Below are positions 15,925-61,746 of a stretch of DNA of 64,000 bases, piece after piece. The stretch comes from Patescibacteria group bacterium. GTDB taxonomy: Bacteria; Patescibacteriota; Minisyncoccia; UBA6257; 2-01-FULL-56-20. The first letter of the stretch is position 1, and each line of letters opens with the position of its first letter. The notes below the pieces were generated by a model, which saw only the letters and a program-made list of their open reading frames with translations, had not been told where the DNA came from and made no database searches. The stretch is taken from positions 64,572 through 128,571 of the forward strand of contig JBBTUL010000012.1 in assembly GCA_038063755.1 (NCBI GenBank). The letters are read 5' to 3'. A program made the translations under genes and the position numbers.

Positions 15925-16070
15925 TTTTTCTCTCGCGTGGTTTACCACGAGCGAGTTTCGCTAAGGCGGGACGAAAACATGCCCCTCGAATTCCTCGGGG
16001 CACTCGATTCGTAATGTGGTTTACCACGAGTGAGTCCCGCTAAGGCGGGACGAATCGAGTGGAGATGGAG
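15925..16070 (+). repeat. ssrA-flank repeat copy B (immediately downstream of the tmRNA; last 11 nt overlap the ssrA 3' end)
   Basis: Direct repeat of 13397-13541; each copy contains two hairpin modules with stems gtgg/ccac and cccgc/gcggg. Confidence 0.85.
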
Positions 16071-16412
16071 GGAATCGAACCCTCGTCTAAAGGTGGGATC
16101 AGTGAATCGTCTACGAGCGTAGATTAGCCGAAGCTAAACGGATTGCCTCGCGTGTTTTACTCCGGTGCGGCAAGGCGGTACATCCGGAGCGAGCCTCCTT
16201 ATATGAGACCGGTTATGAATCGAAGAGGCGCCGATTCGCCGATCCTCTCGCTTCCAGCGGATTGCCAGAAGGGGAGAGTTCTCAAGCTTACGCAAAAGCG
16301 AAAGCCGGAGCTGCAACGCGTTGGTTGGCAGTTATCGTTTTTTGTCGGTTTTACAAGACAACGCTTGGCTCGCAAATCCATGAACCATCTCTATCGAAGC
16401 CAGTGCATCCCC
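16060..16412 (-). ncRNA. ssrA: tmRNA (SsrA)
   Basis: Minus-strand RNA GGGGAUGCACUGGCUUCGAUAGAGAUGG......GACGAGGGUUCGAUUCCCUCCAUCUCCA. The 5' GGGGAUG pairs with the 3' CAUCUCC, the T-arm is GAGGG-UUCGAUU-CCCUC, and the discriminator is A with no encoded CCA. Predicted tag ORF GCC AAC CAA CGC GUU GCA GCU CCG GCU UUC GCU UUU GCG UAA gives (A)NQRVAAPAFAFA. It lies 10 nt downstream of smpB. Confidence 0.85.
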
Positions 16413-16982: not shown

Positions 16983-18677
16983 ATGCGAAAGAAACTATCC
17001 CTTTTGGTCCAAAAAGCGCTTCAGACAGATATTGACCCGGAACTTACCATTCCCGAACACTCGGAGTTCGGCCATTTCTCGACCAATATCGCCATGCGCC
17101 TCGCAAGCGAGCGGAATGAGGACCCGCTTAAGATTGCAGAGAGCATTATAGAGAAGGTGAGAGCTGACGGAGTGAAGCTTGTCGAGCGCGTGATGGTTGC
17201 CGGTCCGGGGTTTATTAATTTTTGGCTTCAGCCAAAAGCGATTCAAGAAGAATTCTCCGCAATACTCAAGAATAAAAAAACATTCGGAAAAAGTAGCAGC
17301 GGAAAAGGGAAGCTGGTGATTGTTGAATATTCTCAGCCAAACATAGCGAAACCTTTGCATGCCGGACACCTGCGAAACACAATCCTGGGAGACGTCCTCG
17401 CGAACGTCCATGCGTGTACCGGACACAAGGTAGTCAGATGGAATTACCTAGGGGACTGGGGGACGCAGTTCGGACGGGTAATCGCCGCATGGAAGCGCGG
17501 AAGCGACGAGGCCGAGCTCAAAAAAACCCCGATCGAGTATCTCGAGAGGCTCTACGTTGAGTTTGGGAAGAAGGCGAAAGAAAATGACGAGCTGGCGGAT
17601 GCCGGACGAGAAGAGTTCCGAAAACTTGAAGCAGGAGACAGGGAAAATTTCAAATTATGGAAAAGATTCAAAAAAGAGTCCCTAAAAGAAATAGGAGAGA
17701 TTTACCGAATGCTTGGAGTGCGCTTCGATACATATATTGGAGAATCCTCTTTTCGAGGAGACATGAGTTCGCTTGTGAAAAACATGCTTGACAAAGGAGT
17801 GGCGATGCGAAGCGAGGGAGCGGTCATCGTGCCGCTTGAGGAGTTTGGTCTGCCCCCCGCACTCATCCAAAAAAAGGACGGAGCGAGCCTGTATCATACA
17901 CGCGACATTGCCGCATTCGATTACCGCCTCAAGAAACATCATCCCGATCGATTCCTCTATGTGGTGGGGAACGAACAGACACTCCACTTTGCCCAACTTT
18001 TGGCGATATTGAAAAAACTTGGCCTCGGGAGGGAGTGCGAGGTGGTGCACGTGAAATACGGCCTCTTGCTGGGAGTTGGCGGCAAAAAGATGTCGACGCG
18101 CGAAGGAACGGCGGTTTCGGTGCGAGGCATTATTAAAAAGGCAATTACCCTTGCGAGCGATGTTGTAGAAAAAAAGAACCCGAATCTTTCGGGGCGCGAG
18201 CGGAAGCGCGTTGCGGAGGCAGTCGGCATCGGTGCCCTGAAGTACGCGCTTCTCAAAGAAAACAGGATGTCGGACATCGTATTTGACTGGGACCGGATGC
18301 TTGATTTTTCGGGAGATAGTGGGCCATATCTTCAGTACACTCGTGCCCGCCTGCTTTCGATCATACGAAAGGCGGGGTGGCGCGGGAAGGCCGATTTCAC
18401 CGAACTTTCAAGTGATCTTGAGCTCGCGCTCATGAGAAAGATTTTTGAATTTCCCGAAGAAGCGGAGCGAAGCTTAGAGACGTTCTACGTGAACAATCTC
18501 GCGCAACACCTCAATAGTCTTGCCGTGCTTGCGAATCGGTTTTACGAATCAACGCCGATACTGAAAGATGAGAACAAAAAAAGAAAAAATGCGCGGCTTC
18601 AGCTCATCGGCATGGTGTCGGTGGTTATCGAGCGAGAACTCGCGCTTCTAGGAATTGAATCGCCGGACAATATTTGA
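16983..18677 (+). CDS. argS: Arginyl-tRNA synthetase
   Basis: Class I HIGH-type motif PNIAKPLHAGHLRNT and KMSKS-type motif KKMSTREG; ArgS-like N-terminal add-on domain. Start set at Met 16983 (MRKKLSLLVQKAL) because the ORF-track 5' extension (16668-16982) overlaps smpB on the opposite strand. Confidence 0.9.
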   Translation: MRKKLSLLVQKALQTDIDPELTIPEHSEFGHFSTNIAMRLASERNEDPLKIAESIIEKVRADGVKLVERVMVAGPGFINFWLQPKAIQEEFSAILKNKKTFGKSSSGKGKLVIVEYSQPNIAKPLHAGHLRNTILGDVLANVHACTGHKVVRWNYLGDWGTQFGRVIAAWKRGSDEAELKKTPIEYLERLYVEFGKKAKENDELADAGREEFRKLEAGDRENFKLWKRFKKESLKEIGEIYRMLGVRFDTYIGESSFRGDMSSLVKNMLDKGVAMRSEGAVIVPLEEFGLPPALIQKKDGASLYHTRDIAAFDYRLKKHHPDRFLYVVGNEQTLHFAQLLAILKKLGLGRECEVVHVKYGLLLGVGGKKMSTREGTAVSVRGIIKKAITLASDVVEKKNPNLSGRERKRVAEAVGIGALKYALLKENRMSDIVFDWDRMLDFSGDSGPYLQYTRARLLSIIRKAGWRGKADFTELSSDLELALMRKIFEFPEEAERSLETFYVNNLAQHLNSLAVLANRFYESTPILKDENKKRKNARLQLIGMVSVVIERELALLGIESPDNI

Positions 18678-18735: not shown

Positions 18736-19029
18736 ATGCAAATGCAAATGAATCCACTCGAGATTCTAGGGTTGTTTTTAATTTTAGCATTTATTGCCCC
18801 GGGAATGTTTTACGTGCAGAGATATGCCAAGAATACCGGCGTGGCAATGAGCGTATTTCTCTTTACGGCCTTTCTTGTGAAGTATAGCGGGTTGCGAGAA
18901 GTTCTTAAGAAAGAAGTGTTCGGGTTGCCACAGCCGACCGCGGGCGATATTCTCGCCTTCATAGCGACATCATTCCTTGTGATTTCAGTAATCAGGGACG
19001 GGTTGGATTTGTACCGTAAGCAACCATAA
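18736..19029 (+). CDS. Hypothetical small membrane protein (97 aa)
   Basis: SD GAGGAG upstream of the ATG; three hydrophobic segments. Confidence 0.5.
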   Translation: MQMQMNPLEILGLFLILAFIAPGMFYVQRYAKNTGVAMSVFLFTAFLVKYSGLREVLKKEVFGLPQPTAGDILAFIATSFLVISVIRDGLDLYRKQP

Positions 19030-19077
19030 GGGCCAAAAGCCCTTTTTTCTTTATTCTGGCGTTGTTTCAAGAAAAAG

Positions 19078-22000
19078 TTGCAGTTCATGTGTGTCATCGG
19101 TATGATTACTCGTACGTATCAAATGTTTACCGAAGAAGGGCCATTTAGCCTGCCAAAGCTTGAGGAAAAAGTTCTTGAGTTTTGGAAAAAGAAGGGTATT
19201 TTCGAAAAAAGTCTTATCGCAAGAAAAGGAAAGAAAAGCTTCGTTTTTTATGAAGGGCCGCCCACCGCAAACGGCAGGCCGGGCATTCACCACGTGCTTG
19301 CCAGATCGTTTAAAGACATCATTCCCCGCTATCGGACGATGCGTGGTTATTTCGTTGAGCGAAAGGGTGGGTGGGATACCCACGGCCTCCCCGTCGAGCT
19401 TGAGGTAGAAAAGAAGCTTGGTCTTAAATCTAAAAAAGAGATCGAAGAATACGGCATTGCGGAGTTCAATAAAAAATGCCGAGAATCGGTTTGGCAATAC
19501 AAAGACGAGTGGGAGCGCCTTACGGAGCGGATGGGTTTTTGGATCGACCTGAAGAACCCATATATTACTTACGAGAATAAATACATAGAGACGCTCTGGT
19601 GGATCATCAAGAAGTTTTTCGAAAAGGAGCTTATGTATCTTGGGCACAAAGTTGTGCCGTGGTGCTCGCGATGCGGCACAGCGCTTTCTTCCCACGAACT
19701 CGCTCAAGGGTACAAAGAAGTCGAAGATCAGTCGGTATACATCAAGTTCAGGTTGAAGCATGGGCAAAAGGTTGGCGAATGGATCACGACAGATCACACC
19801 TATATCCTTTCTTGGACGACGACACCCTGGACGCTTCCTGGAAACGTTGCACTTGCTGTGGGGAGGGATATTGAGTACAAAGCGATCGAAACAGCCGATG
19901 GAGAGGTTTTAATTTTTGCAAAAGACAGAGAGGGGACGCTTGGAGTTTCAGGAAGAGAAGTCGCGACAATTTCCGGCGAAAAACTTCTCAATCTTGAGTA
20001 TTTCCCGCTTTTCAACATCCCAGCACTTCAGACGCTTCGTTCATATCGAGTTTATCCGGCTGACTTTGTTACGACCACAGACGGCACCGGCGTCGTGCAC
20101 ACTGCCGTAATGTATGGAGAAGATGATTATCAGCTGGGTGCCTCCGTAGGGCTTCCGCAGCACCACACCGTGACCGAAGAGGGAATCTTCACTTCTGACA
20201 TCACGAAGCTGGGCGGGTTATACGTGAAAGATCCTGAAGCGGAAAAAAGAATATTTGACCATCTGACAAAAAACAACAATCTTTTGCGCGCAGAGACATA
20301 TAAGCATGAATACCCACACTGTTGGCGTTGCAGCACCCCGCTTCTTTACTACGCGCGCAGCTCATGGTTCGTTTCGATGTCAAAGCTTCGCACCGAGCTT
20401 TTGCGCAGGAATAAAAAAATAAACTGGACACCAGAGCACATCAAAGAGGGAAGATTTGGCGAGTGGTTGAAAGAGGCTAAAGACTGGAATTTCTCTCGCG
20501 AAAGATATTGGGGGACGCCCTTGCCGATATGGCATTGCGAGTCCTGCAAGTCGAGGTTTGTGCCGGGGAGCATGGAGGAGCTTATTAATGCAGATTATTT
20601 CAGAAATACATTTTACCTGCTGCGACACACAGAAGCTGAGCATGTGGTAAAAAAGCTTCTAGCATACGGCCCGGAGACCGACGAGACCAACACGGCGCAT
20701 CTTACTTCAAAAGGGCGAAAAGAGGCGGAACAGATTGCAAAAAAACTTGGGAAGCAAAAATTTGCTGCGATCTACGCCTCGCCATATGCGCGAACGAAAG
20801 AGCTCGCCGAATTGATTCACAAAGAAACAGGTGCGCCTCTTTTCCTGGATGATCGTCTTGGCGAGCTAAACGTAGGAACATTTGCCTGGCACCCAATAAA
20901 AGAATTCGGGAAGTATTTTAAAAACAGCCTCGAACGATTTACCGAGAAGCCGGAGGGGGGTGAAAGCTTGCGCGATGTGCGAGCGCGAGTCATGCGCGCG
21001 GTTCTTGATATCAACAAGCGATACCGCGGAAAGGAAATTCTTATTGTTGGACACGGAGATCCGCTCTGGATGCTTGAGGCCGCGATGAAGGGTGTGTCCG
21101 AGGAAGAAGCACTCAAAATGCCGTATATCGAACTCGGGGAGACGAGGAAGGTCGCGTTGCGCAATCTACCATACGACGAATCCGGGCAAGTTGATCTTCA
21201 CCGCCCCTATGTAGATGAGCTTTTTCTCGGCTGCGCGAAATGCCACGGGAAGATGGTTCGCGTAAAAGAGGTGGCCGATGTATGGTTCGATTCCGGCTCA
21301 ATGCCGCTTGCGCAGAGTCATTATCCGTTCGAACAAGGACCAAAGAATAAACAAAAAACGGATACGGCAGGAGATGTTTCTCGGGCGACATTCCGCGCCC
21401 TTTCATATCCGGCAGACTTTATATCCGAGGCGATGGATCAAACGCGCGGATGGTTCTATACGCTTCTTGCGGTCGCAACGGCGCTTGGACTCGATGCGCC
21501 ATACAAAAATGTTATTTCGTTGGGGCTGATCCACGACAAGTTTGGGCAAAAAATGTCTAAGTCGAAGGGAAATGTTGTTGATCCGTGGATTATGATGGAA
21601 AAGTATGGTGTCGACGCGGTTCGCTGGTATTTTTATACTTCAACGCCGGCCGGCGAGCCGAAAAATTTTGACGAAGTGGATGTCGGGAAGTCATTTCGTA
21701 AATTTCACGCGATCATCTGGAATTCGTTGGTATTTTACCGGACGTATGCTTCAAAGCACCCAGCGGTGATTGTCAGACCGAAACACATTTTAGACCGATG
21801 GATTCTTGCTCGGCTAAATGACACTATTGCGAAAACGATTCGGGCGCTTGACGCCTATGAAGTTAGAGAAGCCGGACTTGCGCTCGAGGCATTTACCGAC
21901 GACCTTTCTCGCTGGTACATCAGACGCTCCCGTCGCCGCTTTCAAAAGCCGATAAGCCAAGCGGACTACCGCGAAGCAACGGGAACGCTAAAGCTCATCC

Positions 22001-22650
22001 TCCTCGATCTTTCGAGGCTCATCGCTCCGTTTAGCCCATTTTTCGCCGAGGGAATATACGAAGGAATTACCGAGGGAGATCGCGGGAAGAAAGAGTCGGT
22101 GCACCTAGAGAATTTTCCGACTCCCAAGCGGAACTTGATTGACCGGAGACTACTTCGCTCCATGGAAGACGCTCGTCGTGTTTCAAGCCTTGGACTTGCG
22201 AAGCGTGCCGAGATCGGCATCAAGGTTCGTCAGCCACTCGCCCTGCTCACCGTAAGGGACGGCGGATCAGTTCGAACAAATAAAGATTTGCTTGTGATCG
22301 TGAAAGAAGAAGTGAACGTAAAGGCGATGAAGTTCGACAAAAATATTTCCGATGAGCTGGTTTACGACACCGTAATTACCCCTGAGCTTAAAGCCGAGGG
22401 GTTGATCCGCGAGATAACGCGCGCGGTGCAGGATTTGAGGCAAGAGACCAAGCTTTCGCCAAAAGAGGGTATTGTTCTTGTGCTTGATGTACCAAAAGAA
22501 GTCGCTCGTATGCTCATTGGGGCAGAAAAAGTTTTTTCCAAAGAAGTTGGTGCGGTTGCGCTTGAATACGGGCGAGAGAAAAAACTCGACGCAGAAGCAG
22601 AGATAAAAACAGACGAAGGAATTTTGCGGATCGGTATACGGAGGGCATAA
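19078..22650 (+). CDS. ileS: Isoleucyl-tRNA synthetase (type 2) with an inserted histidine-phosphatase (PGAM-like) domain
   Basis: HIGH-region PPTANGRPGIHHVLARSF, IleS signature WTTTPWTLPGNVALAV, KMSKSKGN, zinc-knuckle pairs CWRCSTP / CESCKSR / CAKCHGK. Residues ~507-700 (nt ~20590-21180) read LRHTEAEH...LTSKGRKEAEQIAKKL...IYASPYARTKELAELI...GESLRDVRARV...ILIVGHGDPLWML. This is collinear with the stand-alone histidine phosphatase at 61204-61746 (RHGETDFN...GKTQANDLADML...IFSSPLKRARKTADVI...GESATEVKSRL...VILVTHGGIIRLL). Total length is 1190 aa; the start codon is uncertain (19078, 19102 or 19123). Confidence 0.9.
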   Translation: MQFMCVIGMITRTYQMFTEEGPFSLPKLEEKVLEFWKKKGIFEKSLIARKGKKSFVFYEGPPTANGRPGIHHVLARSFKDIIPRYRTMRGYFVERKGGWDTHGLPVELEVEKKLGLKSKKEIEEYGIAEFNKKCRESVWQYKDEWERLTERMGFWIDLKNPYITYENKYIETLWWIIKKFFEKELMYLGHKVVPWCSRCGTALSSHELAQGYKEVEDQSVYIKFRLKHGQKVGEWITTDHTYILSWTTTPWTLPGNVALAVGRDIEYKAIETADGEVLIFAKDREGTLGVSGREVATISGEKLLNLEYFPLFNIPALQTLRSYRVYPADFVTTTDGTGVVHTAVMYGEDDYQLGASVGLPQHHTVTEEGIFTSDITKLGGLYVKDPEAEKRIFDHLTKNNNLLRAETYKHEYPHCWRCSTPLLYYARSSWFVSMSKLRTELLRRNKKINWTPEHIKEGRFGEWLKEAKDWNFSRERYWGTPLPIWHCESCKSRFVPGSMEELINADYFRNTFYLLRHTEAEHVVKKLLAYGPETDETNTAHLTSKGRKEAEQIAKKLGKQKFAAIYASPYARTKELAELIHKETGAPLFLDDRLGELNVGTFAWHPIKEFGKYFKNSLERFTEKPEGGESLRDVRARVMRAVLDINKRYRGKEILIVGHGDPLWMLEAAMKGVSEEEALKMPYIELGETRKVALRNLPYDESGQVDLHRPYVDELFLGCAKCHGKMVRVKEVADVWFDSGSMPLAQSHYPFEQGPKNKQKTDTAGDVSRATFRALSYPADFISEAMDQTRGWFYTLLAVATALGLDAPYKNVISLGLIHDKFGQKMSKSKGNVVDPWIMMEKYGVDAVRWYFYTSTPAGEPKNFDEVDVGKSFRKFHAIIWNSLVFYRTYASKHPAVIVRPKHILDRWILARLNDTIAKTIRALDAYEVREAGLALEAFTDDLSRWYIRRSRRRFQKPISQADYREATGTLKLILLDLSRLIAPFSPFFAEGIYEGITEGDRGKKESVHLENFPTPKRNLIDRRLLRSMEDARRVSSLGLAKRAEIGIKVRQPLALLTVRDGGSVRTNKDLLVIVKEEVNVKAMKFDKNISDELVYDTVITPELKAEGLIREITRAVQDLRQETKLSPKEGIVLVLDVPKEVARMLIGAEKVFSKEVGAVALEYGREKKLDAEAEIKTDEGILRIGIRRA

Positions 22651-23449: not shown

Positions 23450-24436
23450 TTATGGCGAGAGGCCAACTTTCTTTTTAGCGGCGAAAAGCGTTTTTTCGGC
23501 TACTTTCGAAGCCTTCTTTGAGCCGGACACAAGAAGCGATTTGAGCGCTGCGGACTTCACCATAAGCCCAGCCTTCTTGTTTCGATACTCTCGGAAATGC
23601 TCGGCGAGCGCGAACGCGACTCGTTCTTTAAGGTGTGAATAGGTGTTTCCGGCAAATTCCTTCTCAACGTCTCGCATGGGCCGTCCAGTGACTGCCGAGT
23701 AAATTCCGAGGAGATTGGAGACGCCCGGCTTTTCCTTCGGGTCATATTTTATTTCGGAACCGGAGTCGGTCACGGCGCGCTTTACCTTATCGTGGATTTC
23801 TTCCGGCGAGTCATCGAGAAAGAGACAGCTTGCGGGGTCCGACTTCGACATTTTCCTTGAAGAATCCCTAAGGCTCATCACGCGCGGCGTGTGCGTGAGG
23901 ATTCCTTTCGGCTCAGTAAAAATCCTGCCGAATCTTCCATTAAACTTTCTCACGATCGTACGCGCGAGCTCAAGATGTTGTAGCTGATCATCTCCGACCG
24001 GAACAGCCGCGGGGTTATAGAGAAGAATATCGGCGGCCATGAGCGTGGGGTATGTAAAAAGACCCGCATTTACAATCTCAGCCTTTGCGCTTTTATCCTT
24101 GTACTGCGTCATTCGTTCAAGCTCACCCATCGGAGTGATGGTATTGAATATCCAGGCAAGCTCTGTATGTGCGGGAACGAGCGACTGGAGAAAAAGAGTC
24201 GATTTCTTTGGATTAAGTCCGGCGGCCAAAAAATCGGCGGCAAGCTCGAGTATTTGTTTTTGCTTTTTTTTCGGGTCAAAGCTCTCCGTAATCGAGTGGA
24301 GGTCCGCGATGAAGAAAAAACAATCGTATTTGCCGGAGTTTTGAAGTTCTACGAAGTTTTTGAGCGCGCCCAGATAGTTCCCGATGTGGAGCTTGCCAGA
24401 CGGCTGTATTCCCGAGACGAGGACTTGTCGTTTCAT
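23450..24436 (-). CDS. trpS: Tryptophanyl-tRNA synthetase
   Basis: 328 aa; SGIQPSGKLHIGNYLG (HIGH region) and KMSKSD (KMSKS); length typical of TrpS. Confidence 0.92.
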   Translation of the reverse strand: MKRQVLVSGIQPSGKLHIGNYLGALKNFVELQNSGKYDCFFFIADLHSITESFDPKKKQKQILELAADFLAAGLNPKKSTLFLQSLVPAHTELAWIFNTITPMGELERMTQYKDKSAKAEIVNAGLFTYPTLMAADILLYNPAAVPVGDDQLQHLELARTIVRKFNGRFGRIFTEPKGILTHTPRVMSLRDSSRKMSKSDPASCLFLDDSPEEIHDKVKRAVTDSGSEIKYDPKEKPGVSNLLGIYSAVTGRPMRDVEKEFAGNTYSHLKERVAFALAEHFREYRNKKAGLMVKSAALKSLLVSGSKKASKVAEKTLFAAKKKVGLSP

Positions 24437-24473: not shown

Positions 24474-26288
24474 CTAAATCTTGATGAGCACCGGCAGAAT
24501 CATTGGTCTGCGCTTAGTCTTATTATACAGGAAGTTTCCAACCTGATCTCGGATAAGCGTCTTTACGTAGTCGGGTTCGACCTCGCGGTTGTTCGGAATG
24601 CGGCCGATGATATTTTTGACGCGCTTTCTGACTTCTTCAAGCATTTCTTGATTGTCTTTAAGATAGATGAATCCTCGCGAGATAATGTCCGGATTTTTGA
24701 CGATGCGTCCACCTTGATCGACAACGACGATCACAACAATCATTCCTTCCTGGGAGAGGTTGAGTCTGTCTCGAAGAACGACCTCTTCTACGTCGCCAAC
24801 GCCCAAGCCGTCAACCATAACATACCCGGCAGGGACCTTCTCGCCCGAGACGGTAAAATTTTCTTTGGTAACATAGGCCACTTCGCCATTGTCCATGACG
24901 ATAACGTGGTTCTTGGGGATGCCAACCTGCTCGGCAATTTTCCTTAAAGCGCAGCGGAAAAGATAGTAGCCGTGAATCGGGATAACGTACTCAGGCTTTA
25001 CGAGCCTCAAGACGAGCTTCAGGTCTTCCTGGTGGGCATGGCCCGTTGCGTGAAGGTCAAGGATTTTTGTGTTGTATACCTCGTCTACCTGGCGCGCGAT
25101 ATTGTCTTGGAGCGACTGAACGCTTCGTTCGTTTCCAGGGACAACTGACGAGGAGAAAATAACGGTATCGGTACGCTTGAGCTGCATCAAGCGATGCTCG
25201 CCGTTTACGATGCGGGTAAGTCCTGAGTTCGGCTCTCCTTGCGAGCCGGTCGTAAGGATAACCATCTTATCGTCTCGGTGTTTATGAAGCTCTTCGAGCG
25301 GGACCAGAAAGTCCTTTGGCGGCTTGTAGTAGCCCAGGTTTTGCATGATTTGGAAGTTATCTTTCATTGAGCGGCCGTTTAGTGAAACCTTTCGTCCAAG
25401 CTTTACAGCGATTTTCATGATTTCCGTAAGGCGGGTCATAAGGGAAGCGAAGGTGGCGATGACAATTCTTCCTTTCGCCGGGGACATAAGTTCCTCAAGG
25501 TTGTCGCTTACGGCTTCTTCGGAAAACGAAAATCCGGGACGGAGAGCGTTGGTGCTGTCGATGAATACCGCCCGTACCCCTCTTTTTCCGACATCTTCGA
25601 ATACCTCAAGGTCGGTGGGTTTGCCGTTTTTGTCCATACGAACGCGAAAATCTCCAAAGCTCACCATGTTGCCGACCGGCGTATCAAGCACGAAGCCGAG
25701 CGCGTCGGGTACCGTATGGTCGACGTTGAAGAATTCAACGTTAAAATATTTTCCAAGGCGAGTCTTGCTGCCGTGTTTTACAACTTCGAAATGAAGCTTC
25801 GGGGCACTTGTAAATTCTTCATGACGACGTTCAACAACGGCCTTCGTGAAGTCGGCGGTATAGATGAGCGGATTGCCCCATTTTTCAATGAGATAGTGGA
25901 TTGCGGCAATGTGGTCGTAGTGTCCATGCGTCAGAAGGATGGCCTTGATGTTGTTTTTCTTCGAAGCAAGGTACGCCTCGTTTGGGATGATGTAGTCGAT
26001 TCCCGGGGTTTCTTCTTCTGGAAATTGGATGCCAACGTCAACGACAATGATCTCATCCTTGTATTCGTAGAAGTAGCAGTTGCGACCGATTTCTTCGAGG
26101 CCCCCCAAGGGAACAAAGCGAAGAACGTCTTTTTCTGGCGGATGTTCTCCGCCGGTCTTCGTCTTTTGCGAAGGGTGGAAAACCGTCGTGCGGATCGGGC
26201 CGCGCGATTTTCCCTTTGTTTGATTATTTGCGATTGGAGAGAAGCGTGATGTCCGACCTCCTGCTCGTCGCATTGGTGAATGATTCAT
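24474..26288 (-). CDS. rnj: Ribonuclease J (metallo-beta-lactamase / beta-CASP family)
   Basis: LRFVPLGGLEEIGRNCY N-terminal region, HxHxDH motif LLTHGHYDHIAA, beta-CASP and C-terminal domains; 604 aa with a ~50-aa N-terminal extension. Confidence 0.9.
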   Translation of the reverse strand: MNHSPMRRAGGRTSRFSPIANNQTKGKSRGPIRTTVFHPSQKTKTGGEHPPEKDVLRFVPLGGLEEIGRNCYFYEYKDEIIVVDVGIQFPEEETPGIDYIIPNEAYLASKKNNIKAILLTHGHYDHIAAIHYLIEKWGNPLIYTADFTKAVVERRHEEFTSAPKLHFEVVKHGSKTRLGKYFNVEFFNVDHTVPDALGFVLDTPVGNMVSFGDFRVRMDKNGKPTDLEVFEDVGKRGVRAVFIDSTNALRPGFSFSEEAVSDNLEELMSPAKGRIVIATFASLMTRLTEIMKIAVKLGRKVSLNGRSMKDNFQIMQNLGYYKPPKDFLVPLEELHKHRDDKMVILTTGSQGEPNSGLTRIVNGEHRLMQLKRTDTVIFSSSVVPGNERSVQSLQDNIARQVDEVYNTKILDLHATGHAHQEDLKLVLRLVKPEYVIPIHGYYLFRCALRKIAEQVGIPKNHVIVMDNGEVAYVTKENFTVSGEKVPAGYVMVDGLGVGDVEEVVLRDRLNLSQEGMIVVIVVVDQGGRIVKNPDIISRGFIYLKDNQEMLEEVRKRVKNIIGRIPNNREVEPDYVKTLIRDQVGNFLYNKTKRRPMILPVLIKI

Positions 26289-28869: not shown

Positions 28870-30408
28870 CTACTGTATGTTCTTTATAAGGCTTTCGCCG
28901 GTCATGTCTTCCGGCTTTGGAATGCTCATAATGTCGAGAATGGTGGGGGCGATATCGGAGAGAATTCCGGCGGTTTCCCGAGCAAGGTTGCCCTGGTTCG
29001 AAAATCTTTTTCCTCGAAAGCGATCGCCGATTAAATAGAGCGGAACGGGATTCGGGTCGTGCTGTGTCTCGGCTCGGCCGGTCATCGGATTTATAACTTC
29101 TTCAAGGTTTCCGTGATCGGACGTAATAAGGAGCGTGATGTCGGGATGGACTGCTGCTTGCAGGACTTTACCGATCTGAGCATCGATAACGCGCACCGCT
29201 TCTTGCGCGGCATCATAATTTCCGGTGTGCCCGATGGTGTCAGGGTTCGCATAGTTTACGAGTATAAAGTCGAATGCCTGGTCCTGTATTGCCTGCAGGA
29301 GTCGATCAGTGATTGCCGGCGCCATCATGGCCGGATGTTCGTCTGGGTGAGGGATCGACTCGGAGGGGATAAGCACTCGGTACTCATTTTTGTATGGAGT
29401 TTCGTCGTATCCGTTGAAAAAGTAGGTGATGTGAGCATATTTGTAGCTCTCCGCAAGGCGGAGCTGTGTCATGCCTCGCTCGGCAAGAATTTTTCCAAGC
29501 GGCAATTTTACGTTTTCCGACGCGAAGGCAACAGGTACCGAAAAGGTCTCTTTGTAGCGTGTCATGGTCGCGATAAACAGATTCGAGAAATTCTTTCTTG
29601 GGAACTTGTCGAATTCCTTTGCAATAAAGGACTCGGCAATTTCTCGAATACTGTCTTCTCTGAAGTCGAAGAAGAAGAGCGCGTCGTTTTCCTCGATATT
29701 CATCTCCGGCCCACCGAAACGAAGCGCCGGTAAAAATTCTTCGGTGAGCCCCCGGCTGTAGTTTTTTTCAAGAATCGCGGCGAAGTTTTCTTTTGCCATC
29801 ATGCCACCACCACTTACCAGGCAGTTGTAGGCTTCTTTTATAAGGTCCCAATTGCCCTCTCTGTCCATTGCGTAGTAGCGGCCGGTTACTGTCGCGATCA
29901 TTTCTTGGGGAAGCGTCGCGAGAAGCTCTTGTACGGTGTGGGGCGGCATGTCTTTGCCGTCTGCGAAAAGATGGAGCTTTACGCGTGATACTCCTTCTTC
30001 TTTTGCGAGCTTTATGAGTGCGTGGAGGTGTTCAAGAGATGCATGTACGTTTCCCTTTGTGAGGAGTCCGACAAAATTAATTGAAGAGTTGTTTTTTTTC
30101 GCGTGATCGCAAACCTTGCGGAGCGTTTCGTTTTTGAAAAAAGTTCCGTCCGCGATGCTCATTACGATGCGCGGATAGTATTGATAAATCACCTTTCCTG
30201 CTCCGATCGTAAGGTGTCCAACTTCGCTATTTCCGACCTCTCCCCAGGGGAGACCAACGGAAATTCCAGACGCCTGCAGGCTGGTTACAGGATAGTTTTC
30301 TTCGATCCACTTCAGGGCTTGCGGGTTTACAACGTGGATCGGGTTCGATTCGTCATCTCGGCCGATGCCCCACCCATCCAGAATCATAAGAACGACAGTC
30401 TTCTTCAT
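28870..30408 (-). CDS. gpmI: 2,3-bisphosphoglycerate-independent phosphoglycerate mutase
   Basis: 512 aa; N-terminus MKKTVVLMILDGWGIG and C-terminal SDHGN metal-binding motif. Confidence 0.92.
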   Translation of the reverse strand: MKKTVVLMILDGWGIGRDDESNPIHVVNPQALKWIEENYPVTSLQASGISVGLPWGEVGNSEVGHLTIGAGKVIYQYYPRIVMSIADGTFFKNETLRKVCDHAKKNNSSINFVGLLTKGNVHASLEHLHALIKLAKEEGVSRVKLHLFADGKDMPPHTVQELLATLPQEMIATVTGRYYAMDREGNWDLIKEAYNCLVSGGGMMAKENFAAILEKNYSRGLTEEFLPALRFGGPEMNIEENDALFFFDFREDSIREIAESFIAKEFDKFPRKNFSNLFIATMTRYKETFSVPVAFASENVKLPLGKILAERGMTQLRLAESYKYAHITYFFNGYDETPYKNEYRVLIPSESIPHPDEHPAMMAPAITDRLLQAIQDQAFDFILVNYANPDTIGHTGNYDAAQEAVRVIDAQIGKVLQAAVHPDITLLITSDHGNLEEVINPMTGRAETQHDPNPVPLYLIGDRFRGKRFSNQGNLARETAGILSDIAPTILDIMSIPKPEDMTGESLIKNIQ

Positions 30409-58305: not shown

Positions 58306-59282
58306 TGTTGAGGGATAGGATCGATTATTTCAGGCGCATCTTCAGGGTTTACCTGACCTCGGACAAGGGATACCTTTCGTTTTGGCACGAACGTCCGGCC
58401 GTGAACGAAAATCTGATTCCCGGAGAACTGGGAGGCTACTACATGACCTTCGAGGACAAGGCCTCCTATCTCGGGCCAAAAGATGACGACGGGGTGATAC
58501 TCTTCGACTATTTTGCCGACATCGGAAGACAATATAACCCTCTTGCGGTCGCGCAATACGGACTGGCACACTATAACCTATACCTGAAGACCAAGCAGCG
58601 GGAACACCTCGATGTTGCACGGGCGCAGGCCGATTGGCTCGTGAAAAATCTCGAGGAGAACGATGCGGGCATTCCTGTCTGGAAACATAACTTTCGCTGG
58701 CGCTATAAACAGTACCTCGCTCCTGGGTGGTACTCGGCGCATTCCCAGGGTACAGGGATCTCGCTTCTGGGGCGGATGTATCATACGACGGGCGACGAGC
58801 GATACTTATATACGGCGAAAGAGGCGTTTCGGGCGCTTGATACGCGCATAGGAGACGGTGGCGTAAAGTGCATCGATGCCGCGGGAAATGTATGGCTTGA
58901 AGAGTACCTCGTAGACCCTCCCACACATATCCTGAACGGTTTTCTCTGGGGGCTGTGGGGCGTCTGGGACTACTATCTTCTTACCAACGATCCGCGGGGG
59001 TCGGGTCTCTTCGGGGATTGTATTAAAACACTGCTGGGGAATCTGAAACGATACGACACAGGATATTGGTCCCTGTATGACCTCTCCCAGCAATCAATGC
59101 ACATGCTGGCGAGCCCGTTCTATCAGCGCCTCCATATCGTACAGATGCGGATAATGTTTCTGATCACACACAACCCCCTCTTTGATTTTTACTGCCGAAG
59201 GTTCACTTTGTACGAGTCCCGCGGATGGAATCGATATCGCGCGATTCTGTACAAAGCGATTTTCAAACTCTTCTACTTCTAG
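58305..59282 (+). CDS. D-glucuronyl C5-epimerase C-terminal-domain-like protein
   Basis: 325 aa; blocks NPLAVAQYGLAHYNLY, PGWYSAHSQGTGISLLGRMYHTTGDERYL and NGFLWGLWGVWDYYLL resemble the (alpha/alpha)6 C5-epimerase C-terminal domain. Confidence 0.55.
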   Translation: MLRDRIDYFRRIFRVYLTSDKGYLSFWHERPAVNENLIPGELGGYYMTFEDKASYLGPKDDDGVILFDYFADIGRQYNPLAVAQYGLAHYNLYLKTKQREHLDVARAQADWLVKNLEENDAGIPVWKHNFRWRYKQYLAPGWYSAHSQGTGISLLGRMYHTTGDERYLYTAKEAFRALDTRIGDGGVKCIDAAGNVWLEEYLVDPPTHILNGFLWGLWGVWDYYLLTNDPRGSGLFGDCIKTLLGNLKRYDTGYWSLYDLSQQSMHMLASPFYQRLHIVQMRIMFLITHNPLFDFYCRRFTLYESRGWNRYRAILYKAIFKLFYF

Positions 59283-61204
59283 GAAGCGTTGCTGCTGAAC
59301 CAGTAGTCATACCAGAGTGAGAGCGAGATGAGGTTCCAGATTCTGAAGTTGTGGTTCACCGCCCCGCTTTGATGGAGTGATATGATGCGGTCGATGTAGT
59401 CGTAATCAAGGATTCCAAGCTCGCGGAGTTTCGAATTCTTGATCGCGGCGAGAAGCGGTTCTGCCGTTTTCGGATTTTTGAGCCATTCGGTCATGGGTGC
59501 TCCGAAGCCCTGTTTTTTTCGCGAGATGATCTCGTCGGGAATAATGCCTTGCACCGCTTTCTTAAGAATATATTTCGTTATGCGTTTCTTGAGTTTCAAT
59601 TTCTCCGGTATATGGAGCGCAAGTTCGACAAGGCGTTTGTCGAGGAACGGCACGCGCGCCTCGATTGAATGGGCCATGCCCATTTTGTCCACGCGGGCGA
59701 GAAGGAGTTCGGGGAGGCGAATTTTTAGCTCAAGGTAAGTAAGTCGTTCAAGGAAGTCTGCACCGGGATGTACGCGGTCAACCTCGTCGTAGTAGCTTTT
59801 TATCGTCGCGTATTCGTGTCCTGGCGTAAGCGTTGCGCGATATTCGGGAGTAAGCAGCTGCCTTTTCTGAGAGGGAGTAAAGGCGATGGCGTTTCCCCAA
59901 AACGGTTCTTCTCCGTCCGCAAGGCGTCTAAAATACTCTTTTTGGAATTCGTATTTGCCTGAGAGAAGCGGCGAAAGCATCCAATGCGGAATTTTGCGCA
60001 GAAATCTTGGAAGATAGCGCAAAAATCTCCATCCGGCGTTGTGGAGTCGAACCGAAAGAAGATATGCGGGATATCCGGCGAAGAGCTCATCGGCTCCTTC
60101 GCCGACTTGGGCCACAATAACGCAGCTCTTCCGGATAAGCTTCGAAAGATAATAGACAAGAAAACAAATTTGATCGCCGTTCGGGTCGTCTGCAGAGAAT
60201 CCGTAATCTGGGAGGAACGCGAGGAGGTCCTTCTCGCTCACGATGAGCTCGTGCGACTTTGCCCCCAAAAGCTCAACGATCTTTCGGGAGTATTCGAACT
60301 CATTGTAATGAGGATGCTCGTCGGACCCGACGGAAAAGGTCTCGACCGGCTTCCCGATGGCCCTACTCATAAGCGTCGCGTTTGTCGAAGAGTCGATGCC
60401 GCCGGAGAGGAAACATCCGAAAGGAACGTCCGAGACCATTTGCTTTCGAATGGAGTCTGTGAGAAGAGATCTAATTTCGTGAATATATTCTTCCTCGCTT
60501 TTTTCGCTCTCGCCCTCACGCATCAGAGGATTCCAGTACTCGCGGACGTTAACGTCCGCGCCTTTTTCGATTAAGAGAAAATGAGCCGCAGGAAGCTTTT
60601 TGATATCGCGGAAAAGGGTAAGCGGCGCGGGCATACAGGCAAACGTAAGATAATAAGAAACATTTTCTTTAGCAAGTTCTTTTCTAAATGACGGGTGGGC
60701 GAGAATCGCCTTCGGCTCGGAACCAAAGTAGAACGTGTCGTCCTGGACGGCATAGTAGAAAGGTTTAATACCGATGTGGTCGCGCGCTGCAAACAAAACT
60801 TCTCGCTTTTCATCCCAGATCACAAACGCGAACATGCCGTTTAGCCTTTTTACGACATCTGTGCCGTACTCTTCGTATCCATGGAGTATCGTCTCGGTGT
60901 CCCCGTGAGTTTTAAGAGTGTGCCCTTTTTTTAGAAGGTCCTCGCGAAGCTCCTGGAAGTTGTAAATTTCACCATTGAACGTGATCCAAACAGTGCCATC
61001 TTCGTTTGTCATCGGGCACGCCGCTTCCGGAGAAAGATCGATAATCGCGAGGCGGCGCTGGCTTAGCCCAACGTTTTTGTTCTTCGAAATGAAGTTAGCG
61101 GCACCATCGGGCCCGCGATGTTTAAGCGCATCGCGCATATGCGAGAGTTCCGAATCCAAAATTTCCCCGCCTTTTAACTTATATAATCCGGATATGCCGC
61201 ACAT
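59279..61204 (-). CDS. Asparagine synthase (glutamine-hydrolysing) family amidotransferase (AsnB/WbpS-like)
   Basis: N-terminal MCGISGL (Ntn glutaminase Cys2), PP-loop SGGIDSS; 641 aa. Confidence 0.9.
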   Translation of the reverse strand: MCGISGLYKLKGGEILDSELSHMRDALKHRGPDGAANFISKNKNVGLSQRRLAIIDLSPEAACPMTNEDGTVWITFNGEIYNFQELREDLLKKGHTLKTHGDTETILHGYEEYGTDVVKRLNGMFAFVIWDEKREVLFAARDHIGIKPFYYAVQDDTFYFGSEPKAILAHPSFRKELAKENVSYYLTFACMPAPLTLFRDIKKLPAAHFLLIEKGADVNVREYWNPLMREGESEKSEEEYIHEIRSLLTDSIRKQMVSDVPFGCFLSGGIDSSTNATLMSRAIGKPVETFSVGSDEHPHYNEFEYSRKIVELLGAKSHELIVSEKDLLAFLPDYGFSADDPNGDQICFLVYYLSKLIRKSCVIVAQVGEGADELFAGYPAYLLSVRLHNAGWRFLRYLPRFLRKIPHWMLSPLLSGKYEFQKEYFRRLADGEEPFWGNAIAFTPSQKRQLLTPEYRATLTPGHEYATIKSYYDEVDRVHPGADFLERLTYLELKIRLPELLLARVDKMGMAHSIEARVPFLDKRLVELALHIPEKLKLKKRITKYILKKAVQGIIPDEIISRKKQGFGAPMTEWLKNPKTAEPLLAAIKNSKLRELGILDYDYIDRIISLHQSGAVNHNFRIWNLISLSLWYDYWFSSNAS

Positions 61205-61746
61205 TACAAAACAAATTCGTGGATCGAAGCGCTTTTAAGATTAAGCTCGATATCTTCTCCGAGCATTTTATGAAGCAGACGAATAATGCCACCGTGTGTT
61301 ACGAGGATGACGTTTCGATGGCGAGTTTTTTTGAGCTCTCTTAGAAAAGAAGTGAGGCGTGATTTGACCTCTGTGGCGGACTCTCCTCCATACGGTCGGT
61401 AATCGTATTTCAAAAGAGTTTTGTCGATATATTCCATGTCTTTTCCTGCAATCTTAGCGACCTCCTTCCATGTCTTTCCTGAGAGCGATCCAAAATCACA
61501 CTCTGAAAGTTCCTCTTTTTCAGTTATCTTCATGCCGACTTTTTTCGCGATGACATCGGCTGTCTTCCTTGCGCGCTTCAGAGGCGAAGAAAATATTGCA
61601 TCAACCTTCTCTTGGGCGAGCATGTCGGCAAGATCGTTCGCCTGAGTCTTCCCTTCGGTGTTTAGCGACAGGTCCTCCCTTCTTCCCTGAAGCTTTCCGC
61701 TTTTATTAAAATCGGTTTCTCCGTGCCTTACGACGACGAGATTCAT
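61204..61746 (-). CDS. Histidine phosphatase family protein (phosphoglycerate-mutase-like)
   Basis: MNLVVVRHGETDFN (RHG motif), ...HGGIIRLL; 180 aa. Confidence 0.85.
   Translation of the reverse strand: MNLVVVRHGETDFNKSGKLQGRREDLSLNTEGKTQANDLADMLAQEKVDAIFSSPLKRARKTADVIAKKVGMKITEKEELSECDFGSLSGKTWKEVAKIAGKDMEYIDKTLLKYDYRPYGGESATEVKSRLTSFLRELKKTRHRNVILVTHGGIIRLLHKMLGEDIELNLKSASIHEFVL

Follow-up and report, generated by a model that had tools for sequence, protein, structure and literature searches.

A PhoE-like histidine phosphatase domain nested within the isoleucyl-tRNA synthetase of Patescibacteria

Introduction

Aminoacyl-tRNA synthetases are among the best-studied enzymes, and their accessory domains, which serve in editing, tRNA binding or signalling, have each revealed new biology. 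The type-2 form of isoleucyl-tRNA synthetase (IleRS) is represented by structures from Thermus thermophilus (1ILE) and Priestia megaterium (IleRS2, 8C8U-8C9D). A structure comparison describes a zinc-binding motif in the CP3 subdomain of the T. thermophilus enzyme; it also reports that the topology of CP3 varies among IleRSs (PMC7191050), which suggests that this is a peripheral and variable part of the protein. PhoE (YhfR) of Geobacillus stearothermophilus (1EBB/1H2E) belongs to an entirely different family: it is a broad-specificity phosphatase of branch 1 of the histidine phosphatase superfamily. Here we describe a gene in which the two are combined. The ileS gene in a 64,000-nucleotide stretch of a Patescibacteria genome (assembly GCA_038063755.1, contig JBBTUL010000012.1, positions 64,572 to 128,571), referred to throughout as the window, encodes a complete type-2 IleRS within which a complete PhoE-like domain of branch 1 is nested.

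The host synthetase and the position of the insert

The open reading frame (ORF) at 19078-22650 on the forward strand is a single open frame, as the first-pass annotation of the window had proposed, and counts 1190 residues from a TTG start. The ATG at 19123 is the likely start of ileS, because MFTEEG (ORF residue 16) lines up with the first residue of the T. thermophilus enzyme; residues of the window IleRS are numbered here from this Met, which gives a protein of 1175 residues. The features of the gene, with the basis of each in brackets, are as follows.

19123-22650, forward strand: ileS, type-2 IleRS of 1175 residues (translation, Pfam, alignment to 1ILE, TIGR00392)
19282-19293, forward strand: class I signature motif in the non-canonical form G54-I-H-H57, of G/AXHH type (aligned to T. 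thermophilus HVGH)
20536-20547, forward strand: first Cys pair of the CP3 zinc knuckle, C472 and C475 (aligned to T. thermophilus CP3)
20584-21189, forward strand: inserted segment, residues 488-689, made up of a short linker, the phosphatase domain and a return linker (break in the 1ILE alignment)
20611-21123, forward strand: His_Phos_1 domain, PF00300, ORF residues 512-682 (Pfam)
20623-20631, forward strand: R501-H502-T503, RHG-type motif, with H502 as the predicted phospho-accepting nucleophile (alignment)
20791-20793, forward strand: R557, second phosphate-binding Arg, in an SPxxRT motif (alignment)
20863-20865, forward strand: E581, predicted general acid (aligns with the LxE motif of PhoE)
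21052-21054, forward strand: H644, second catalytic His, in the subfamily motif HGDPLW (alignment)
21232-21243, forward strand: second Cys pair of the CP3 zinc knuckle, C704 and C707 (aligned to T. thermophilus CP3)
21283-21297, forward strand: WFDSG motif of the Rossmann fold, where the IleRS chain resumes after the insert (alignment)
21343-21396, forward strand: lineage-specific surface loop, residues 741-758, KNKQKTDTAGDVSRATFRA, equal to insertion site B of other lineages, described below (pLDDT below 50)
21550-21564, forward strand: KMSKS motif (sequence)

The protein matches the Pfam families tRNA-synt_1, Anticodon_1 and DUF5915, together with a His_Phos_1 match that is nested within tRNA-synt_1. 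Its score against the NCBIfam equivalog model for ileS, TIGR00392, is 861 bits with a cut-off of 621, and the host of the insert is therefore a genuine IleRS. As an IleRS of type 2 it has the signature GIHH, KMSKS and WFDSG, the editing segments TTTPWT and GTGVVH, and the Anticodon_1 and DUF5915 domains. Residues G54, H56 and H57 of the signature are nearly or fully invariant across the family of insert-bearing IleRSs; one report links this swapped G/AXHH form to mupirocin hyper-resistance in type-2 IleRS (PMC10485003). AlphaFold models the full-length protein with a pLDDT (predicted local distance difference test) of 88.9 and a pTM (predicted TM-score) of 0.83, and the loop at residues 741-758 is the sole internal stretch modelled with low confidence or as disordered.

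Alignment to 1ILE places the insert precisely: residues 1-487 correspond to T. thermophilus residues 1-476 and residues 690-1033 to 488-821, so that 202 residues of the window IleRS stand in place of an 11-residue loop. As the first-pass annotation had suggested, one Cys pair of the zinc knuckle precedes the insert and the other follows it; the site is a surface loop of CP3. The window protein was aligned with its 120 best full-length homologues, and all counts of residue conservation below are based on these 121 sequences. C472, C704 and C707 are kept in every sequence and C475 in 117/121, and the length of the insert ranges from 199 to 223 residues. The motifs quoted in that annotation (LRHTEAEH, LTSKGRKEAEQIAKKL, IYASPYARTKELAELI, GESLRDVRARV, ILIVGHGDPLWML, CESCKSR and CAKCHGK) are all present in the translation, and the coordinates that it had given to the domain, 20590-21180, correctly bracket it.

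Fold and family of the inserted domain

The insert matches PF00300 with an E-value of 1.3e-31 and a score of 110.2 bits, far above the gathering cut-off of 21.7, over profile positions 1-170 of 194. The predicted structure agrees with this assignment. Modelled alone from a 30-sequence alignment, the insert reaches a pLDDT of 94.7 and a pTM of 0.91, and in the full-length prediction it is modelled as confidently as the remaining protein. Foldseek returns PhoE (1H2E/1EBB) as the best match, with a TM-score of 0.77 and 29% identity, and finds PhoE, phosphoserine phosphatase, Rv2419c and the cofactor-dependent phosphoglycerate mutases (dPGMs) with a probability of 1.00 and TM-scores of 0.7-0.8; glucosyl-3-phosphoglycerate phosphatase is also among its neighbours. 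By sequence, the closest solved proteins are again PhoE (1EBB/1H2E, E 3e-16), followed by the metal-independent phosphoserine phosphatase 4IJ5. The identification as a histidine phosphatase of the PGAM-like kind, first made from a handful of motifs, is thus borne out by profile, fold and structural comparison.

The family can be named more readily than the function. The equivalog model for CobC (TIGR03162) gives 93 bits against a cut-off of 162.9, that for SixA (TIGR00249) 23.5 against 74.5 with only the first 70 residues covered, and that for PspA 65 against 350; among the dPGM equivalogs the scores are 69 against 225 (dPGM_arch), 51 against 261 (GpmB) and 23 against 82 (pgm_1). As every specific functional model falls below its cut-off, we place the insert in the superfamily without assigning it a specificity. 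A role as the glycolytic mutase was considered and rejected, with the dPGM models far below their cut-offs and a gene for cofactor-independent phosphoglycerate mutase (iPGM) in the window; given that gene, the insert is not required for glycolysis.

A second histidine phosphatase in the window serves as a comparator.

61204-61746, reverse strand: separate His_Phos_1 gene of 180 residues, of a different subfamily and outside the ileS system (Pfam, E 1.3e-44)

The blocks of the insert had been reported as collinear with this product, which BLASTP confirms (27% identity, E 1e-17). Where the insert has HGDPLW, the separate protein has VTHGG.

Catalytic residues and their conservation

The residues that would carry out the chemistry line up with their PhoE equivalents (R501, H502, R557, E581 and H644). 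All 121 sequences have R501, H502, R557, E614 and H644, and 120 of them have R622, which bears out the expectation that the catalytic Arg and His residues would be intact and conserved in relatives. At position 581 the residue is Glu in 101 sequences and Asp in the other 20. W649, at the end of the subfamily motif, is present in 114/121, with HGDPLW and HEYPIW as the variants of that motif. The third position of the RHG motif is Gly in 109 sequences, Thr in five and Ala in five; the window has Thr there, followed by Val at a position where 87/121 have Asn. Taken together, the insert is under purifying selection with a full catalytic set.

Distribution across Patescibacteria

PF00300 is present in 120/120 of the best full-length homologues, which are 52-79% identical to the window protein and 1152-1373 residues long. 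Where their sources are named, they are metagenome-assembled genomes (MAGs) of Paceibacterota/Parcubacteria, including Liptonbacteria, Jorgensenbacteria and Wolfebacteria, and some come from the early GW2011 genomes. A search with the 267-residue insert and its flanks had shown that the fusion is present outside the window genome; it returned only proteins of up to 459 residues, mostly fragments, and the spread was defined by the full-length search. With a profile of the insert, 536 representatives (50% clustering) were found at E below 1e-30; among the best 150 of these, 99 have an IleRS context, another 45 stand alone as proteins of about 190 residues and six are of other kinds.

A scan of GTDB, with one genome per species, found 116 species genomes that carry the HGDPLW[MI]L variant. 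The scan used an 8-sequence alignment, since the 30-sequence profile was too diverse, and its 116 genomes are a lower bound that is biased toward the HGDPLW[MI]L subgroup. In 79 of the 80 loci kept, the domain lies inside a long ORF, mostly with recognisable IleRS motifs flanking it on both sides. The nested architecture is a fixed, clade-wide trait of a large Paceibacteria/Parcubacteria group and not a peculiarity of the window genome. Public databases list the fused proteins under non-specific titles, for example "class I tRNA ligase family protein".

Some records of the fused ileS carry other labels: uncultured Candidatus Saccharibacteria (many, from one bulk submission), Gammaproteobacteria, Binatia and Sedimentisphaerales (loci L004, L005, L010, L028, L052 and others, and protein P0001). 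Many taxonomic labels of MAGs are unreliable, and these are probably bulk or mis-binned assignments and not a sign that the fusion reaches beyond the Paceibacteria-like group. IleRSs of Bacteroidales, which at 56% query coverage had seemed candidates for carriers of a degenerate phosphatase, were rejected; they have only a helical CP3 extension of about 45 residues.

The same survey disposes of the simplest rival, namely that the fusion is an artefact produced by an assembly chimera, by a frameshift or by an intein-like selfish insertion. A chimera or frameshift had been named at the outset as what would undo the claim. Both are excluded because more than 100 independent assemblies share the nested architecture, from many projects in the case of the homologues as well as in the GTDB species loci. 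The G+C content of the insert (0.48-0.52) is the same as that of its flanks, the junctions show no compositional break, and the IleRS sequence carries on in frame on both sides. An intein was considered and rejected, in agreement with the first-pass annotation: the whole protein matches seven families in Pfam with E-values up to 0.01, none of them an intein or Hint family, and the His_Phos_1 fold accounts for the entire insert. We regard the chance of any such artefact as negligible.

Other insertion sites, tandem copies and other fusions

CP3 is only one of the places at which relatives of the domain have entered IleRS. Three sites can be told apart: site A in CP3, site B after WFDSG, and site C where the stem-contact fold gives way to the anticodon-binding domain. 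Site B is occupied in P0285, in P0320, where as in P0285 the domain follows WFESGSMPYAS, and in the second copy of P0251; site C is occupied in P0258, P0285, P0320 and P0350. Tandem pairs at CP3 occur in P0284, in P0304 and in P0352 from Peribacteria, and P0241 has four phosphatase copies; proteins with more than one copy have 2-4 of them. Every copy at sites B and C, and every tandem copy, retains the RH motif and the second His.

The domain is also joined to other enzymes. At the C-terminus of arginyl-tRNA synthetase (ArgRS) it is found in protein P0299, encoded at 5001-7070 of L090/L091, two independent 70-kb contigs; there the ArgRS fusion is followed by recO and ileS is gone from the locus. 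A fusion to Sua5/YciO/YrdC, an enzyme of the N6-threonylcarbamoyladenosine (t6A) pathway, is found in protein P0330, encoded at 977-2140 of L089. Three proteins of 382-410 residues (P0322, P0348 and P0386) consist of two tandem phosphatase copies, free-standing and with no synthetase part. The 1066-residue P0383, which resembles IleRS, combines a match to the IS200-type transposase family Y1_Tnp (residues 340-461) with a His_Phos_1 domain and, at the C-terminus, a GNAT domain; either its ORF has been called wrongly or the protein is an unusual mosaic.

It is conceivable that the fold now serves only as a structural element or to bind RNA, its chemistry being dead, for which one could cite the Thr in place of the RHG Gly and the Val in place of the majority Asn in the window protein. 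Five residues of the domain (R501, H502, R557, E614 and H644) are, however, invariant in all 121 sequences despite identities of only 52-79%, and pseudo-enzymes normally lose residues of the kind that every tandem copy has kept. A non-catalytic module is therefore very improbable, and we consider it probable that the nested phosphatase domain is catalytically competent, leaving the substrate aside.

The argS-ileS locus and the stand-alone copies

The stand-alone relatives of the insert lie close to where the insert itself is found. In 8/10 contexts read, they are beside argS, ileS or both, and in six (L073, L081, L082, L083, L092 and L093) the gene is directly upstream of an ileS that lacks the insert and encodes, where the gene is complete, 931-960 residues. 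The usual gene order is smpB-infC-rpmI-rplT-argS, then the phosphatase gene, then ileS, one further gene and recO. In L084 argS and the phosphatase gene are followed by a convergent ileS, and in L095, a contig of 1.9 kb, by a different gene on the opposite strand. The remaining two copies (L085 and L088) are in unrelated contexts. Among insert-bearing ileS genes, 34 of the 63 loci with sufficient upstream sequence have argS directly upstream. The window belongs to these.

16983-18677, forward strand: argS, encoding ArgRS, the upstream neighbour of ileS (Pfam Arg_tRNA_synt_N, tRNA-synt_1d, DALR_1)

The argS-ileS pair of the window is the same locus as the argS-phosphatase-ileS arrangement of relatives, minus the separate phosphatase gene. 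Between argS and ileS of the window there is no remnant of a stand-alone phosphatase, only an ORF of 97 residues that encodes a hydrophobic protein and a terminator-like hairpin. Nor did Rfam reveal a leader RNA between the two genes; its only match is a transfer-messenger RNA (tmRNA). The surrounding features are the following.

16057-16412, reverse strand: tmRNA gene just upstream of argS (Rfam, 120.7 bits), with the tag peptide ANQRVAAPAFAFA
18736-19029, forward strand: hydrophobic ORF of 97 residues, in the position of the stand-alone phosphatase gene of relatives
about 19030-19050: GC-rich hairpin and T-run, after the 97-residue ORF
23450-24436, reverse strand: tryptophanyl-tRNA synthetase (TrpRS), near ileS
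24474-26288, reverse strand: RNase J, near ileS
28870-30408, reverse strand: iPGM, near ileS

The gene smpB lies near the equivalent locus in relatives. Farther away in the window, an ORF of 641 residues at 59279-61204 on the reverse strand, which from its sequence looks like an asparagine synthetase, shares one base with the comparator phosphatase gene at 61204-61746; this one-base overlap suggests that the two are co-transcribed.

These contexts bear directly on the most serious rival, in which the insert is a hitch-hiker: an ordinary housekeeping phosphatase for a sugar phosphate, for phosphoserine or of broad specificity, which was once the neighbour of ileS and performs an unrelated job, with IleRS providing no more than a permissive loop and co-expression. 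Much of the evidence fits. The nearest relatives are generalist or metabolic enzymes (PhoE, phosphoserine phosphatase and glucosyl-3-phosphoglycerate phosphatase), the flap that usually confers specificity is variable, the CP3 loop is permissive with a topology that differs between IleRSs (PMC7191050), the variable tether point means that no precise geometry is needed, and two of the ten stand-alone copies read are in unrelated contexts. It fits less well that the domain has been captured in at least three loops of IleRS and in tandem arrays, since read-through cannot nest one gene within another. Furthermore, the best 150 relatives include 99 in IleRS, one in ArgRS and one in Sua5/TsaC, a distribution that is hard to explain without a benefit from the pairing, and five other relatives of more than 235 residues show no partner domain (the short ones were scanned in part). 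We consider a housekeeping hitch-hiker quite possible, though on balance doubtful.

Proposed function

The chemistry of the superfamily is established: a phospho-histidine intermediate is formed and then hydrolysed. By analogy, the terminal phosphate of the substrate would be held by R501, R557 and H644 and attacked by H502, E581 would protonate the leaving group, and water would hydrolyse the phospho-histidine on H502 with release of phosphate. We infer that the IleRS polypeptide may thus carry two catalytic centres.

What the second centre might act on is suggested by the company that the domain keeps. IleRS, ArgRS and Sua5/TsaC all convert ATP to an adenylate, with release first of pyrophosphate (PPi) and later of AMP, and each has its place in tRNA biology. 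On the strength of this shared chemistry and biology we favour a compound derived from a nucleotide, or a tRNA end, as the substrate. Our preferred reading, which we put forward tentatively and at less than an even chance, is that the phosphatase is a tethered functional partner of IleRS; candidate substrates would be AMP or another nucleotide, possibly PPi, or a phosphorylated 3' end of tRNA. Nesting at several loops and amplification of copies argue for a benefit from physical linkage, because read-through cannot place an upstream gene in the middle of a downstream one. The tether point differs by lineage and the copy number varies, which points to a tethered accessory enzyme rather than to a precise channel; the variable tether and the tandem copies would provide proximity or stoichiometry and not a fixed path. 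The phosphatase-IleRS pairing itself is old and recurrent.

A bolder form of this proposal can be stated. We speculate that the domain might serve the class Ia synthetases of Patescibacteria as a dedicated accessory subunit with catalysis of its own, a third activity beside synthesis and editing that would act on aminoacylation itself, either by hydrolysing PPi or AMP and so driving charging in cells whose metabolism is minimal, or by freeing the 3' end of tRNA from a blocking phosphate or pyrophosphate. If it were so, the capture at three or more IleRS loops, the tandem copies and the fusions to ArgRS and Sua5/TsaC would follow from selection for coupling. We hold this stronger version to be possible and no better than that.

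One particular substrate deserves separate treatment. Toxins can pyrophosphorylate the CCA end of tRNA. The phosphatase could remove a 2'- or 3'-phosphate or a pyrophosphate from A76 of tRNA-Ile, left there by a nuclease or a toxin, before the tRNA is charged. The three partners, IleRS, ArgRS and the t6A enzyme Sua5/TsaC, are all enzymes of tRNA, a flexible tether would suit a substrate that is already bound to the synthetase, and the median isoelectric point (pI) of the family is basic (9.3). To set against this, one of the three, Sua5/TsaC, does not handle the 3' end of tRNA; proteins of these organisms tend to be basic in general (the rest of IleRS has a pI of 9.0); and nothing would explain why tRNA-Ile alone should be served. 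We know of no enzyme of the histidine phosphatase fold that acts on RNA ends. Cleaning of the tRNA end is accordingly unlikely.

Regulation offers yet another reading, in which the domain removes phosphate from phospho-His, phospho-Ser or phospho-Thr of a protein, be it IleRS itself, where inhibition would be reversed, or a signalling protein. There are precedents: the C-terminal RHG domain of mycobacterial MutT1 dephosphorylates sensor kinases (PMC12407098), and SixA is reported to act on Ndk (PMC12934123). The insert is nonetheless of the size and type of PhoE rather than of SixA, as the weak score of the SixA model already indicated, and two to four tandem catalytic copies would be odd in a regulator that acts in cis. 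A protein phosphatase is, in our estimate, distinctly improbable.

Several points weigh against a tethered partner and should be set out together. The phosphatase activity and its substrate are both read from sequence. In the window lineage the Thr and Val departures beside the nucleophile may have cost part of the activity. Specificity is usually shaped by the flap that follows strand 1, and in the 121-sequence alignment this flap varies in both length and sequence; a single tightly defined substrate is therefore less likely. The adjacency of argS, the phosphatase gene and ileS could stem from inherited synteny rather than from functional coupling, because gene order in Patescibacteria is conservative. 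The fusions to other enzymes are few: those to ArgRS are rare, with three clusters when the best 120 out of 8000 candidates are considered, so that we do not claim a general association across synthetases, and the Sua5 fusion rests on one contig of 3.7 kb. Finally, in a neighbour-joining tree of 165 domain copies the stand-alone and nested forms are interleaved and the tree does not separate the insertion events, which are therefore counted as multiple on account of the distinct sites. With all of this taken into account, we would still place the tethered partner first, the housekeeping hitch-hiker next and the protein phosphatase after them.

Significance and comparison with known systems

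A phosphatase that, from its sequence, looks catalytically intact is built into IleRS across a large radiation of uncultivated bacteria. Coupling between the two activities would mean that tRNA charging has a new way of controlling its reaction or repairing its substrate, and would offer a hint of how translation is run in ultra-small symbiotic bacteria. Without coupling, the family would still be a clear natural example of a domain nested repeatedly in permissive loops of an essential enzyme, of value to protein engineers and as a marker of lineage.

Each component has been described before: type-2 IleRS, PhoE-like phosphatases, and synthetases that gain domains. The nested combination is, as far as we could find, undescribed. 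Full-text literature searches turned up no report of an aminoacyl-tRNA synthetase with a histidine phosphatase in it, in keeping with the first-pass annotation, which had known of none, and recent IleRS papers, including a survey of 96,219 IleRS sequences and the hyper-resistance paper, make no mention of the insert in the passages searched. There is likewise no model for a His_Phos form of IleRS among the best 25 of 27 NCBIfam matches.

The host is closest to the type-2 IleRSs, to which it is homologous over its full length (T. thermophilus 1ILE, E 5e-236; P. megaterium IleRS2, E 3e-224). It has their domain order and their DUF5915-type C-terminus, its four CP3 Cys residues are as in Thermus, and it shares the G/AXHH signature with IleRS2, as described in PMC10485003. 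It differs at one point, where 1ILE and the P. megaterium enzyme have 11-12 residues and the window IleRS has its 202-residue phosphatase segment. For the insert the closest system is PhoE, which likewise has about 200 residues and shares with it the catalytic set R-H...R...E...H and the motifs GES and LTxxG. PhoE is free-standing, whereas the insert has linkers that return the chain to IleRS; unlike PhoE, the insert also has the motif H-[GE]-[DY]-P-[LI]-W and a longer, variable flap after strand 1.

A curated precedent for a second enzymatic domain in IleRS is the form that carries a GNAT domain (NF040702, ileS_w_GNAT), although its fold and chemistry are other than those of a phosphatase and the window protein, at 317 bits, stays far below the cut-off of 1999 for that model. 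Joining of a branch-1 phosphatase to an enzyme of nucleotides or nucleic acids also has precedents, in MutT1 (Nudix and RHG) and in the RNase H/acid phosphatase proteins (NF005567), to which the insert gives partial matches with 73 bits against a cut-off of 326. In MutT1 the role of the RHG domain is distinct from that of its partner domain (PMC12407098). Those proteins are end-to-end fusions with partners that are not synthetases, in contrast to the window IleRS, in which the phosphatase is nested within the synthetase.

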